A stretch of DNA of 64,000 nucleotides from an uncultured Pseudomonadota bacterium (GTDB taxonomy: Bacteria > Oederibacteriota > Muellerivitia > Muellerivitales > Muellerivitaceae), in NCBI GenBank assembly GCA_963770835.1, contig CAVYRH010000003.1, positions 224,001 to 288,000 on the forward strand. Reading direction: 5' to 3'. The translations under genes and the position numbers were made by a program. Below the pieces are notes generated by a model, which did not search any database, was not told the origin of the DNA, and saw nothing but the letters and a program-made list of their open reading frames with translations. Shown here piece by piece: positions 20,710-64,000 of the stretch. Numbering within the stretch: position 1 is the stretch's first letter; the number at the start of each line of letters is the position of its first letter.

Positions 20710-23151
20710 ATGCTTTTTTGGCGATCATTAGGCATTTTCTTAAAGCGTTTGGGACAATCGTTCGCCTCTCCTTTCCGCAACCTTTTCATGAAAAAACCAA
20801 CTGTGAGCCTTTCGGGCTTTTTGCCGAACGGTGTGGACCAGAACTCCTTCTCTTTAAAAAACTTTCTCTTGCGAAACTTCTTATTGGGAACGGTGTTGAT
20901 CCTGGCGCTGTGCGTTGGGGCACGGGCGATGATCAACCTGCCGGGATTGCTGCGGCTGACACCCCTGTCGGTGACCGTGACGCCGGAAGGCGACCTGCCG
21001 GCCCAGGTCCAAGCCTTGGAAACCCAGACGGTTGGGCAGGCCTTTGACCGAGACACCACCACCCTTTACACGCCCTATGGCAACGACCAAATCCGTGTGA
21101 CCTTCGAGGGAGTGGAAACCATCAACCGGTTGCGCCTTTTCGGCCCCTCTCCCTGTCGCTTGAGTGTGAGCTGGGACGACGGGACCGGAAAGCTGACCCC
21201 TGTCCCGGCCTGGAGTAATTTGGATTTGAGCCAATTGGGGAATGGCTGGAACAACCTGGACCTTTCCGGTCCGGTCTCCTGCGCCTCTTTGGTATTGAAC
21301 ATTGTGCCTGAAACCCCGACTTCCGCCTCTGGGGCGGGGATTTCAGAAATGGAATTCTGGGGCCAGGGCTGGGCCCAGAACGAGGCGGATGGCGGTGCCT
21401 GGGATGCCTGGCTCAATTCGGCCTCGGCCCCCTCGAGCCTGATGGTGAGCGGGCGCGAATACCTGGGGGCGCCCGCCAACGGGTCCAATTCCGGGGTCGT
21501 AACGGTTGGCGGCTCCGCCACTACCGGCAGTTTCACCGTGAACCTGCCCATGGCCGGAAGCCAGTACCGGCGCATGTGGCTGATGTATGACGTCAATGGC
21601 CTATCCAGCTGGATCGCGGTTCCCCGGACGATCAACGGCAAAGAGGCCGCCGGGGGATGGCCATTGCCAGGGTCTAGCCAATGGTGCACTGAAGTGGAAT
21701 CCCTCCAGCCTTCATGGATGAACGCCGGGGCCAATACGATCACCTTCAGCCTGCCCAACGGCACGGTGAACCCCTACGAGGTCCAGAACTTGAAATTGGT
21801 GGCCGAAGAGGACGACGGGGCGAACCTGATTGATACCATCACCCCTTCGGCGGGGAATGCCTCGGTGCTTTTGGATGGGGATGAGACAACGGGTTGGAAG
21901 CCCTATGTGGACGGAGAAGGCGGAGTCAACCCTACTCCCTCACTCACCTTTAATCTGTACCGCGGCGAGCAATTGGATTCGCTGAGGCTCTACCTGGTGA
22001 ACGCCCTGGGAGGCCAGGTGGTGGAAAGCGTGGAACAAGGGGGTGTCTGGGAAAAGCTGGGGGACGTGACTAACGGCCATGGCTTGACGGCCGGATGGCA
22101 AAGCCTGCCGGTGAGCATGGTGGGCCCGGTGGACGCGGTGATGCTGGAGTTTAGGGGCGGGGACGGCAGCGCCGGGGAAATCATGGAGGCCATGGCGGAA
22201 GGGTCGGGGGTGGGCAAACCCTATGGACAGACCATTGAAATAACCTATCCAAATACGGGCCAGTTTTTCGGTACGGAAGCTTATATAAGGGGTTTTTTGG
22301 GGCAGGCGGACGACGGCAACGGCCAAGCCCAGGTGCTGTTGGGAAGCCAGCCGGCCCAGGTGATGAACGGGCAGTTTGAGGGCATCGTGAGCATGAACCA
22401 GGTGGGGGTGCCGGAAGGCAGCCAGTCCTGGGCGGTGACGGTGACGGCGGTCTACCCGGACGGGGCGCAATTGACCCAGGTGGTCAACCTAGGCCAGCAG
22501 GTGAGCGGGGGGACCGGGTCGGGGCAGGGCACCTACGCCCAGATGATGAACCCGGGGCAGGCCACGGTGTTGAACGTACTGGGCGCCCAGTTGTCGGTGA
22601 GCGCCAACGCATTGACTTCCAAAGTGAACATGCAAGTGGTGCCGCTCTCGACGACTGACCTGGAGCCATTGAACCCGGGGATGACGAACGTGACGGGGGG
22701 GACCTACCGGGGTTACCGGTTCCTTCCCCATGGGACGATATTCAAGAGCCAGGTGAAGGTGAGCCTGCCCTTACGACCCGACCATGCTGCCCAACGGCAA
22801 GACGGTGGCGGACGTCAAGACTTACTATTTCGACACGAACCGGCGGATGTGGGAGCCCCTGCCCCTGTCCAGTGTGGACAGCTCGGGGCAAATGCTCACC
22901 AGCCTGACCACCCACTTCACGGACTTCATCAACGCTACGGTCAGTCTTCCGGATACGCCCCAGGAGGTGAGTTTCGACCCCAACCAAATGAAGGGTATCC
23001 ATACCGCGGACCCGGGGTCCAAGGTCAACCTCATCCTTCCGCCCAAGGCCCGCAGCGACGGCAGGGCCAAGTTGTCCTACCCCATCGAGGTCCCGCCCGG
23101 ACGGCAGGGCCTGGCGCCGAAACTGGAGGTGGCCTACGATTCCCAGGGTGA
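20710..23151 (+). CDS. N-terminal part of giant SpvB/FG-GAP/RHS protein copy 1 (paralog homology ends at the frameshift near 22771)
   Basis: Very similar to the N-terminus of 37239..49055 up to KVSLP, then out-of-frame sequence; signal ..VGARA/MINLPG; start could be 20710 or 20788. Confidence 0.75.
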   Translation: MLFWRSLGIFLKRLGQSFASPFRNLFMKKPTVSLSGFLPNGVDQNSFSLKNFLLRNFLLGTVLILALCVGARAMINLPGLLRLTPLSVTVTPEGDLPAQVQALETQTVGQAFDRDTTTLYTPYGNDQIRVTFEGVETINRLRLFGPSPCRLSVSWDDGTGKLTPVPAWSNLDLSQLGNGWNNLDLSGPVSCASLVLNIVPETPTSASGAGISEMEFWGQGWAQNEADGGAWDAWLNSASAPSSLMVSGREYLGAPANGSNSGVVTVGGSATTGSFTVNLPMAGSQYRRMWLMYDVNGLSSWIAVPRTINGKEAAGGWPLPGSSQWCTEVESLQPSWMNAGANTITFSLPNGTVNPYEVQNLKLVAEEDDGANLIDTITPSAGNASVLLDGDETTGWKPYVDGEGGVNPTPSLTFNLYRGEQLDSLRLYLVNALGGQVVESVEQGGVWEKLGDVTNGHGLTAGWQSLPVSMVGPVDAVMLEFRGGDGSAGEIMEAMAEGSGVGKPYGQTIEITYPNTGQFFGTEAYIRGFLGQADDGNGQAQVLLGSQPAQVMNGQFEGIVSMNQVGVPEGSQSWAVTVTAVYPDGAQLTQVVNLGQQVSGGTGSGQGTYAQMMNPGQATVLNVLGAQLSVSANALTSKVNMQVVPLSTTDLEPLNPGMTNVTGGTYRGYRFLPHGTIFKSQVKVSLPLRPDHAAQRQDGGGRQDLLFRHEPADVGAPAPVQCGQLGANAHQPDHPLHGLHQRYGQSSGYAPGGEFRPQPNEGYPYRGPGVQGQPHPSAQGPQRRQGQVVLPHRGPARTAGPGAETGGGLRFPG

Positions 23152-63019: not shown

Positions 63020-64000
63020 CGCCCCAATCCGGAAAGGCCGTCAATCCCCCGATGGAACCCGAAAAGAAGCGGAACGCCGGGAAGGCTTCCGGCATAAGGC
63101 ACCCTTTTGCCCCAAAGCGCATCGGTGAAATTCTCATCTCCCACCAATGGCTCTCCGGGCCCCAGCTGGAGGAAGGCCTGGCCCAGGCCAAGGGGCTGCT
63201 GGGGCGGTGGCTGGTGGAAAGGGGCCATATTACCGAGGCCCAACTGGCCCAGGCCTTGTCCGAGCAGTTCCACCTGCCCTATGTGGACCTGAAGGGATTC
63301 ACGGTGGCCCCCGAATTGTTCCAGCATTTCCCGGCGGCGGAAGCCTACCGCCAAACCGCCCTGCCCTATGGCCGCGATAACGGAACCTTGCGGGTGGTCG
63401 TCTCCAACCCCATGGAAAGCCACAAACTCGCCGACCAGCTGGAGGCCAGGACAGGCCTGAAGGTGGAGCTTTTCCTGGCGACCCCCACCGGCGTCCAGGA
63501 AGCCCTGGAACGAAGCCAGGCCACCTCGGCCCTTTTGAGGGATTTTTCCGACGGGTTCAAGGCGGAGGATAGGGGGGGCGAAGCCAAGGGTTCGGTTTCG
63601 GCGGCCACCCTGGACGACCAGGACAGCGGAGTAGTGCGCTTGATCAATACCCTGCTTTTGGCAGCCCTCCAGAAGCGGGCCAGCGACATCCATTTTGAGA
63701 CCTACGAGACGGGCACCGTCATCAAGTACCGGGTGGACGGCCTGCTTTACCCGGCCACGGAGAGGCTGGACGCCAGGCACAACAGGGCCTTTGTTTCCCG
63801 CATCAAGGTCATGGCCGAGCTGGACATCGCCGAGACCCGGGTGCCCCAGGACGGCCGGTTCCAGCTTCGGTTGAACGGCCGGGATATCGACTTTCGCGTT
63901 TCCGTCATGCCCAGCGCACTGGGCGAGGACGTGGTCATCCGCATCCTAGACAAGGCTTCTTTAAATGAAGAGTTCAGTCAGCTGAGTCTGGAGGCCCTGG
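63016..64000 (+). CDS. GspE/PilB-family secretion ATPase (partial, runs off the window; not in ORF track)
   Basis: RIGEIL, ASDIHFE, YRVDG, IKVMAELDIAETRVPQDGRF, DFRVS..P...GEDVVIRILD; ATGA overlap with the gspF-like gene. Confidence 0.92.
   Translation, partial: MTPQSGKAVNPPMEPEKKRNAGKASGIRHPFAPKRIGEILISHQWLSGPQLEEGLAQAKGLLGRWLVERGHITEAQLAQALSEQFHLPYVDLKGFTVAPELFQHFPAAEAYRQTALPYGRDNGTLRVVVSNPMESHKLADQLEARTGLKVELFLATPTGVQEALERSQATSALLRDFSDGFKAEDRGGEAKGSVSAATLDDQDSGVVRLINTLLLAALQKRASDIHFETYETGTVIKYRVDGLLYPATERLDARHNRAFVSRIKVMAELDIAETRVPQDGRFQLRLNGRDIDFRVSVMPSALGEDVVIRILDKASLNEEFSQLSLEAL

Follow-up and report, generated by a model that had tools for sequence, protein, structure and literature searches.

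A giant SpvB-RHS protein and its likely export through an adjacent Pul-type type II secretion system in an uncultured bacterium

Introduction

The stretch of DNA analyzed here (the window) is 64,000 nt long and corresponds to C3:224001-288000, that is, part of contig C3 of genome G000, an assembly of 4.58 Mb in 26 contigs which is 96% complete. Coordinates without a contig name are positions in this window. Relatives sharing 83-85% secretin identity carry the label candidate division FCPU426. The window holds two giant genes for RHS proteins resembling a fused TcB-TcC toxin shell, here called copy 1 and copy 2, and it ends inside an operon for a type II secretion system (T2SS). The original prediction for this DNA saw an undescribed secretion and display system, in which stand-alone RHS shells are exported by Sec and a T2SS-like machine and are served by dedicated surface partners. 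Our analysis points to a narrower picture: copy 2 is likely a toxin which uses the neighboring T2SS as its way out, and most of the accessory genes appear to be passengers.

The two giant genes

Copy 2 (37239..49055, +) is intact, a single open reading frame (ORF) of 3938 aa, about 24 of which come from an insertion sequence (IS). Its order is signal peptide, two discoidin/CBM32-like domains, a ZU5-like domain, SpvB (774-960), FG-GAP, TcdB_midN, RHS and a C-terminal tip. The Pfam matches of the giants to SpvB, FG-GAP, TcdB_midN and RHS_repeat are all above cut-off, and the SpvB end of copy 2 is homologous to YenB/TcdB1 and the RHS end to YenC2/TccC2. The signals in the 730-aa head are weak: F5_F8 is found in 4 of 8 aligned homologs and PDB 4a42 matches with E 6e-4, which is the discoidin/CBM32 signal, a DUF7383 signal is also weak, and ZU5 has a Pfam match in one of the 8 aligned homologs (E 7.8e-7) and none in the window protein itself. 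The RHS core keeps both Asp positions of the autoprotease, in DPIL at 3689 and in D-E-I-G at 3725. The tip comprises 187 aa (48417-48977) with a G+C content (GC) of 42%, and its GC at third codon positions is 0.33 versus 0.85 in the core. A search for close relatives of the tip found none; P0001, a protein 94% identical to copy 2, has the same tip, ends 24 aa earlier and is without the IS-derived tail.

An IS256 element (48974..50378, -) sits at the stop codon of copy 2, with a Mutator transposase at 49056-50276 and a 9-bp target duplication at 48974 and 50370. Its left end is a tandem duplication of ~28 bp (48982-49037), which gives copy 2 a repeated CPRQDFGCK tail. Before the insertion of IS256 the gene directly behind copy 2 was the one at 50401..50982 (+), which has 33.5% GC and encodes a three-helix membrane protein, the candidate immunity protein; a search for its relatives returned only the gene itself. 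The variable region which follows (51004..55545) contains a second low-GC membrane protein (51004, +), an integrase fragment (51705, -), an IS200-like gene of the Y1-transposase-like type (52294, +; 52236-53264 with 32-bp inverted repeats) and three small genes for exported proteins or lipoproteins (+). This region possibly holds old immunity genes. The variable low-GC tip and the immunity-like gene downstream are signs of a polymorphic toxin which the original prediction overlooked.

A frameshift near 22,770-22,780 divides copy 1 into two ORFs. The 5' piece (20710..23151, +) encodes the signal peptide (to ...VGARA) and the discoidin-like, DUF7383-like and ZU5-like head, and its frame departs from homology near 22,770-22,780; the 3' piece (22784..32962, +) has the Pfam domains SpvB, FG-GAP, TcdB_midN and RHS. 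The 31 flanking genes are free of frameshifts in a comparison with the relative G054, so the assembly is not generally error-prone. In reads the break is represented only by low-depth contigs of four soil runs; two of these span the site, have many other differences and may stem from copy 2 or from a relative. The C-terminal 276 aa (32132-32959) are acidic, of low complexity and rich in Glu, Gly, Pro and Lys, with 58% GC; neither a DPxG-type motif nor the second autoprotease Asp was found in this C-terminus, and no homolog of the 276 aa was found among the fetched relatives. Copy 1 appears to be a broken, non-cleaving paralog. The two copies are 83% identical across the N-terminal ~640 aa and 46% across the body. 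Of the two paralogs of about 4,000 aa with signal peptides that had been described for this locus, both thus carry SpvB, FG-GAP, TcdB_midN and RHS and copy 2 is intact, whereas copy 1 is frameshifted and not one ORF.

In both copies the signal peptide is delimited by hydropathy alone, as a hydrophobic segment which closes with GARA around residue 65-72. The N-regions (20710-20925 and 37239-37433) are unusually long, 45-55 aa, and basic and aromatic, a trait common to the closest homologs P0003, P0005 and P0006. A further full giant copy was not found elsewhere in the genome. A 569-aa ORF at G000:C26:666950-668659 bears a weak likeness to the RHS C-terminal part and could be an orphan cassette.

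The T2SS operon and the insertion site

The operon begins with gspF/pulF (61820..63019, +; T2SSF) and gspE/pulE (62881..64000, +; T2SSE with an MshEN domain), and it runs past the window. It continues as a complete, open 11-gene operon at C3:285820-295751 in the order F-E-M-N-O-P-secretin-G-G-GspG-K with all ORFs intact, and the part beyond the window (C3:288858-295751) encodes M, N, O, P, the secretin, two pseudopilins, GspG and a K-like pseudopilin. TPR, STN and N3 domains are present in the secretin, and the GspG match exceeds the TIGR01710 cut-off. GspG, secretin, ATPase and platform protein are thus all present, and a prepilin peptidase is encoded on contig C26. A separate pilB/pilC/pilQ locus lies on C26 with the prepilin peptidase, a third, short secretin is found on C2, and PilT was not found in the T2SS operon. 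The prediction that the island ends in co-oriented gspF and gspE therefore holds, and the possibility that these are genes of an unrelated pilus does not. The order matches an operon of Geotalea sp. SG265, where homologs of F, E, N, the secretin and two pseudopilins are found, and which we take to represent the pul gene order F-E-M-N-O-P-Q-G of the Geobacter type. By gene content and order the operon is a T2SS of the Geobacter Pul type. The Pul (Oxp) T2SS of Geobacter has been described, and the name Pul is taken from that work, of which part was available (PMC3543383).

In the relatives G054 and G067 phosphoesterase genes directly precede gspF and there is no giant block at the site, and in G055 only a short, different insert is present at the same site, left of gspF. 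The window from ~19,300 to 61,800 therefore represents an insert of ~42 kb in a site that is otherwise empty. Its GC is 59.4% and that of the T2SS operon 59.7%; the flanks are lower at 52.8% and 51.3%. The empty site in three relatives argues that the Pul-type T2SS is the older resident and that the 42-kb block was inserted into its upstream "cargo slot". An IS200-like gene (19562-20086) lies at the left edge of the insertion. To the left of it, at 14707-19264, are genes for a multicopper oxidase and two phosphoesterase-family proteins, of the kinds which adjoin the operon at gspF in giant-free relatives; it is possible that they are the everyday cargo of this T2SS.

A family of polymorphic toxins

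Among 1,802 scored candidates 44 homologs of 2,300-4,200 aa were found, in Goldbacteria, Marinobacter, Desulfonema, Electronema, Bacteroidia and others. Their N-termini are hydrophobic across the family (by hydropathy only), and a DPxG-type autoprotease motif is present in 34 of the 36 with a readable end. The tips of 33 homologs were sorted into 27 clusters that are unrelated to one another; domains of the AHH, REase-7, NS_2 nuclease, amidase, Scabin-like and HINT types are among them. Orphan toxin cassettes and immunity arrays follow the homologs in Marinobacter, a Rhodobacteraceae genome, Nitrospinaceae and Aliiroseovarius.

These features correspond to the "TcdB/TcaC" class of polymorphic toxins as given in the accessible part of Zhang et al. 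2012 (signal peptide, SpvB, integrin propeller and RHS, with ZU5; PMC3482391). The giants have a signal peptide, SpvB followed by propeller and RHS, and a hypervariable C-terminus with a putative immunity gene downstream, and from this domain order we assign them to that class. Signal peptide, SpvB, FG-GAP, RHS, variable tip and toxin-immunity order are shared with it, ZU5 may be, and discoidin adhesion domains are mentioned for the class as well. The giants here have 3,400-4,100 aa whereas the stated peak of the class is near 2,200; and in the portion of the paper that was available SpvB itself is the export determinant and no outer-membrane machine is named, whereas here a specific T2SS is linked (PMC3482391). 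The Tc B-C shell (YenB/YenC2, TcdB1/TccC2) has the same SpvB N-terminus, FG-GAP/TcdB middle and RHS core, and a homologous autoprotease region, as far as the available part of the source describes it (PMC7861908). The giants differ from that shell in being one fused chain with a Sec signal and an extra head predicted to bind glycans, in the missing TcA and in the immunity-like genes downstream.

One could propose that the giants are non-toxic adhesins or scaffolds. The composition of the copy 1 tail, its high GC and its missing motif fit such a role, as do the discoidin-like head and the lack of a toxin family match for either tip. The tips of the homologs are, on the other side, recognized toxin domains with cassette and immunity arrays, and in copy 2 both the tip and the membrane gene behind it are low in GC. 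We consider this explanation quite improbable for the family; it may hold for copy 1.

Two observations were made next to other giants. At G058:C1:11102-27939 a ~10-kb block consisting of an orphan RHS cassette and the next genes is tandemly repeated behind the giant. In Geobacteraceae and Nitrospiraceae (L125, L128, L133, L122, L147, L150 and L174) a conserved lipoprotein of ~460-500 aa is encoded before the giant; the one scanned, that of L125, had no Pfam match. A surface anchor is a possible role for this lipoprotein.

Linkage between the giants and the T2SS subtype

Kin genomes are not independent and the co-occurrence counts given here ignore phylogeny, so they should be taken as enrichments and not as tests. 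Of 99 genomes in the phylum, 8 carry the giant head, and this secretin is present in every one of them (E <1e-180); the other 91 genomes gave 5 strong and 2 weak secretin matches. Giant and operon are on one contig, within about 14 kb, in 5 of the 8 carriers (G000, G065, G077, G079 and G098) and on separate contigs in the other three. The giant comes right after K in G077 and G079, while in G065 the order is giant, a small gene, a PPC lipoprotein and gspF. [quoted passage not shown] A similar protein is encoded at G091:C3:16546-23604.

Outside the phylum the full head was found in 34 of 47 searched genomes, and 21 of these 34 have the subtype-specific pseudopilin. The subtype is present in 9 of 9 proteobacterial carriers versus 4 of 200 other Gammaproteobacteria; among the 9, giant and operon are direct neighbors in 4 and lie apart in about 2, and 3 cases could not be decided. 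In many loci only a few hundred bases separate the last pseudopilin from the start of the giant gene, which has the same orientation, and no other cargo is encoded in between. One cultured, non-pathogenic carrier with the operon next to the giant is Marinobacter sp. DUT-1 (L261). The predicted co-occurrence of GspE and GspF genes with giants thus recurs in several phyla. For the locus search a single-protein query of the giant head gave nothing and an alignment query was used. A whole-length alignment fetched mostly distant SpvB-RHS proteins of Bacteroidota and Actinomycetota, among which no linked operon of this subtype was found, and these served as a comparison set. The locus of G119 (Nitrospirota) was rejected as an example of Pul-type adjacency; its giant is preceded by gspF, gspE, a gene of 1,470 aa and a K-like gene, and the locus is compact and of a different kind.

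The reverse search took the best 80 of 260 confirmed secretin loci with a reach of 10 kb; 10 loci had been in the query alignment. Among these 80 a giant head was found at 16 loci, a giant C-terminal part or cassettes at 3, other large cargo at 10 more and neither at 51, many of them on short contigs and 16 of them from Nitrospirota or Desulfobacterales with 0 giants. When the loci of the query alignment and the Nitrospirota were left out and at least 2 kb was required on both sides, 26 loci remained: 8 with a giant, 6 with other cargo and 12 with neither. The other cargo types are teneurin-like, transglutaminase-Big-RHS, an RHS-IPT cluster, DUF6531-RHS, CARDB/prenyltransferase-like and adhesin giants. 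They flank the same subtype at L207:10769 (a teneurin-like gene in the cargo slot), L220:14190, L245:10357, L233:14661, L258:14504-21704, upstream in L215 and L227, and at L278:15705; L227 was given its cargo type because it resembles L215, and the sequence of L245 stops short of any RHS. In a quick-method secretin tree the giant-bearing loci are spread over many branches. These neighborhoods suggest that the operon is not dedicated to the giants and serves other large cargo too.

In 72,556 plasmids the full head was found only in 8 records of Aliiroseovarius crassostreae. The same 8 plasmids gave the top secretin matches, with the operon some 40-55 kb from the giant, and one was shown to have its own prepilin peptidase. 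The next-best plasmid secretins are those of Ralstonia megaplasmids, which have the same gene set, a 28% identical secretin and a 1,712-aa Rhs gene beside gspG; this is probably the Rhs-gspG link reported in the accessible part of bioRxiv 2025.05.08.652813.

Tc, T6SS and T9SS routes

TcA_TcB_BD (PF18276) was not found in the 96%-complete genome, and the same search was positive in 7 of 68 other genomes. [quoted passage not shown] VRP1 (PF03538) and PorP were not found there by searches without a positive control, nor was the TpsB ShlB, for which no control gave a match. In the giant-bearing genomes TcA is found in 5 of 59 and VipB in 19 of 59, and TcA is also absent from the complete carriers G107, G113, G117 and G133. 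The prediction of stand-alone shells is thereby supported beyond the window. A classical Tc holotoxin or a T6SS effector with its partner genes missing from the assembly could be argued from the 26 contigs and the 96% completeness, and is set against the rarity of TcA and T6SS among carriers and the family-wide signal peptides; we regard its probability as negligible.

As to a T9SS, a SprA-like 1,994-aa gene, below cut-off, is present at G000:C5:192794-198778, and 81 ORFs of the genome have CTD-like tails. In addition a subtilase with a CTD-like tail is encoded at C3:310199-312960, followed by a barrel gene which is presumably PorV-like. The SprA-like gene and the 81 tails would make this a T9SS-like system outside Bacteroidota. 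A first rival model thus lets the toxins leave by a SprA/PorV route with a CTD-bearing partner, as the Bacteroidota members appear to do, and makes the T2SS a mere neighbor. Among the Bacteroidota giants whose head is shorter, 50 of 51 informative loci have an upstream gene in the same orientation which belongs to a single homologous family and ends in a CTD-like tail. The proteins of this family have 450-1,090 aa and a T9SS type-A CTD end (L127, L129, L132, L148, L152 and 45 more) and are candidate carriers; Pfam Por_Secre_tail was found in 15 of 16 scanned, in 10 over cut-off. However, no ORF of the island was found to have a CTD-like tail, no homolog of the Bacteroidota partner was found in the genome, and the T2SS link is seen in the proteobacterial carriers, a group not known to have a T9SS. 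We find the T9SS route unlikely for the proteins of the window.

SpvB-Rhs genes beside T9SS type-A CTD genes have been noted for Apibacter, in the available part of that report (PMC8125069). There, too, the shell family is paired by neighborhood with an outer-membrane export route, with the difference that the partner is a T9SS and the head is shorter and without discoidin-like domains (PMC8125069), while here it is a T2SS. The neighborhoods suggest that the shell has to borrow its route across the outer membrane and that the type of head tracks the route.

The accessory genes

Behind copy 1 lie a membrane-anchored TPR protein overlapping its stop codon (32959..33618, +), a small lipoprotein-like outer-membrane barrel with a Pro/Thr linker (33651..34370, +), an NHL beta-propeller lipoprotein (34367..35404, +) and a predicted outer-membrane barrel of about 500 aa (35433..37043, +; likely start 35544), which has one paralog on C11 and look-alikes in Myxococcota, Fibrobacterota and Bdellovibrionota. 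Copy 2 is trailed by IS256 and low-GC and mobile genes. In the stretch behind them (55582..60497) lie the third NHL lipoprotein of the island (55582, -) and, beginning 8 kb behind the giant, a second set: another small Pro/Thr-linker barrel (57076, +; 45% identical to 33651), an NHL lipoprotein (57902, +; 47% identical to 34367) and a Sel1-repeat membrane protein (58755-60497, +). The predicted arrangement of accessory genes behind each giant was therefore right for copy 1 and not for copy 2. A two-domain PPC-like lipoprotein (60788..61810, +) precedes gspF.

In a third model these barrel, NHL, TPR and Sel1 proteins form a dedicated display system which anchors the shells on the surface, as first proposed for this locus. 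In its favor, the barrel and NHL pairs (45-47% identity) have diverged about as far as the giant bodies (46%), which would also fit an old block duplication confined to this lineage. The comparison with 189 non-own loci with giant parts (a redundant set; 145 with at least 5 kb of flank) gave no match to TPR, both small barrels, the large barrel, Sel1 or the low-GC genes, and one distant match to NHL. Members of the small barrel family were seen in 16 of 30 family genomes and are common in giant-free relatives; of the 7 other genomes of the phylum that carry a giant, G065 from the same genus among them, none has one. There are more than 20 NHL paralogs in the genome and Sel1 is likewise expanded genome-wide. 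The expected co-occurrence of barrel and NHL genes with the homologs was not seen, and the idea of dedicated surface partners is not supported: as a general system the display model is largely refuted, and for this island we judge it improbable. Their distribution marks the TPR, barrel, NHL and Sel1 genes as passengers specific to this lineage, not as conserved partners. The PPC lipoprotein is the sole accessory gene with a match beside another giant, in G065 only, where a 71% identical protein is also encoded between giant and gspF. Kinship of the PPC lipoprotein with the one before the G089 giant was considered and is not clear (E 0.057).

The proposed export model

Since the pairing of giant and T2SS recurs in several phyla, the giants are likely antibacterial toxins likely exported by that T2SS. 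We propose that copy 2 is an intact, likely antibacterial SpvB-RHS toxin. Sec likely takes it across the inner membrane, in the periplasm it likely folds into a shell that encloses the variable tip, and the Pul-type T2SS next to it is its likely exit, with neither TcA nor a T6SS involved. We give this model a probability of about 0.6. The Sec plus T2SS export of the original prediction is supported by the absence searches together with the strong cross-phylum linkage. The RHS aspartyl autoprotease would release the tip of 187 aa within the shell, glycans on the surface of the producer or the target may be bound by the discoidin-like head, and the membrane protein of gene 50401 would give immunity. 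Uptake, or release at the target envelope, would be the likeliest route of the tip into the target. The B-C shell is about 6 nm wide and could pass the secretin lengthwise.

Several points weigh against export by this T2SS. The evidence is genomic throughout, and a folded substrate of ~400 kDa would be unusually large for a T2SS. G054 (99% complete, 5 contigs) and G055 keep the operon without any RHS match and G067 keeps it without a nearby giant; 12 of the 26 informative independent secretin loci are without giant cargo. Conversely, 13 of the 34 outside carriers are without the subtype, 8 of them having a canonical GspG (Desulfonema, cable bacteria, Desulfatitalea and others), and the 5 Sorangium carriers have no GspG over cut-off. 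Geobacteraceae and Thermoanaerobaculia (Acidobacteriota) have the subtype unlinked to the giant, as is the case in Geotalea sp. SG265, and the 8 giant-bearing plasmids represent one species. Head distances and secretin distances go together (rho 0.71, Mantel p 0.0002, for 14 adjacent pairs), a correlation which is confounded by kinship and could be produced by shared ancestry alone. In copy 2 the autoprotease motif is D-E-I-G instead of DPxG, and no known toxin domain was found in the tip, which gave two weak, repeat-like matches and, in a separate comparison, atlas scores <0.9. The SprA-like gene and the 81 CTD-like tails offer a second possible exit.

There is a further rival, in which the shells stay periplasmic or cell-bound and are freed by lysis or vesicles while the T2SS exports a co-selected lipoprotein partner or hydrolases. 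The size of the cargo speaks for it, as does the lipoprotein gene upstream of many homologs. Giant-free relatives keep the operon beside phosphoesterase and multicopper-oxidase genes, which are typical T2SS cargo types according to the accessible part of the Pul/OmpB study (PMC3543383). It does not account well for the giants that start, co-oriented, so close behind the last pseudopilin with no cargo between, nor for unrelated YD giants in the same slot, and we rate it as rather unlikely.

Relation to known systems

To call the system undescribed was too strong, since the protein class (PMC3482391) and a link between Rhs and gspG (bioRxiv 2025.05.08.652813) are published, both in sources available in part. 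In the same preprint XRhs VIII of Xanthomonas and RRhs II of Ralstonia are Rhs toxins encoded beside T2SS genes (gspG). A precedent for T2SS-dependent Rhs activity is Bcn-A, whose activity is lost in an xpsD mutant according to the available part of the study (PMC7259588). These Rhs proteins have 1,400-1,700 aa and no SpvB/TcB parts, whereas the giants are fused TcB-TcC-type shells of more than twice the size, associated with a whole operon in FCPU426-like bacteria and in Gamma-, Beta- and Alphaproteobacteria. The Geobacter Pul (Oxp) T2SS has the same order F-E-M-N-O-P-secretin-pseudopilins, and the cargo known from the accessible text is OmpB, a multicopper protein (PMC3543383); in the subtype here a terminal GspG and a K-like gene are added, and giant YD proteins flank it. 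Bacterial teneurin-like proteins are likewise Sec-targeted YD shells around a polymorphic toxin, for which the portion of the 2026 paper that was available gives no obvious machine of delivery, and have another N-terminal superfold (PMC13018210); the same text states the outer-membrane crossing of these shells as an open question. Giant genes beside T2SS-like loci have been reported for Omnitrophota in the accessible part of bioRxiv 2023.11.21.568195. The literature outside subscription papers and supplements yielded no work that connects giants of the SpvB type with a Pul-type operon; Zhang 2012 Additional file 1 and the supplements of the bioRxiv preprints could be relevant here. The toxin class and the T2SS type are both known, and what appears to be new is their cross-phylum pairing and the wider use of the operon flank by YD giants.

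A broader model can be put forward tentatively, at somewhat less than even odds. It holds that a subfamily of Pul-type T2SS, mobile between phyla and on plasmids, is specialized for giant YD shells (~400-kDa fused TcB-TcC, teneurin-like and other RHS giants), that the discoidin-like head is the sorting signal and that the Bacteroidota kin swap the head and use a T9SS partner. The "TcdB/TcaC export pathway" would then be a shell that borrows two known machines.

The proposed export model names a candidate outer-membrane machine for stand-alone RHS/Tc-like shells with signal peptides, based on a link seen in several phyla. If it is true, the known cargo size of the T2SS would be raised, and a function would be found for a T2SS subtype which is present in about 2% of the sampled Gammaproteobacteria.

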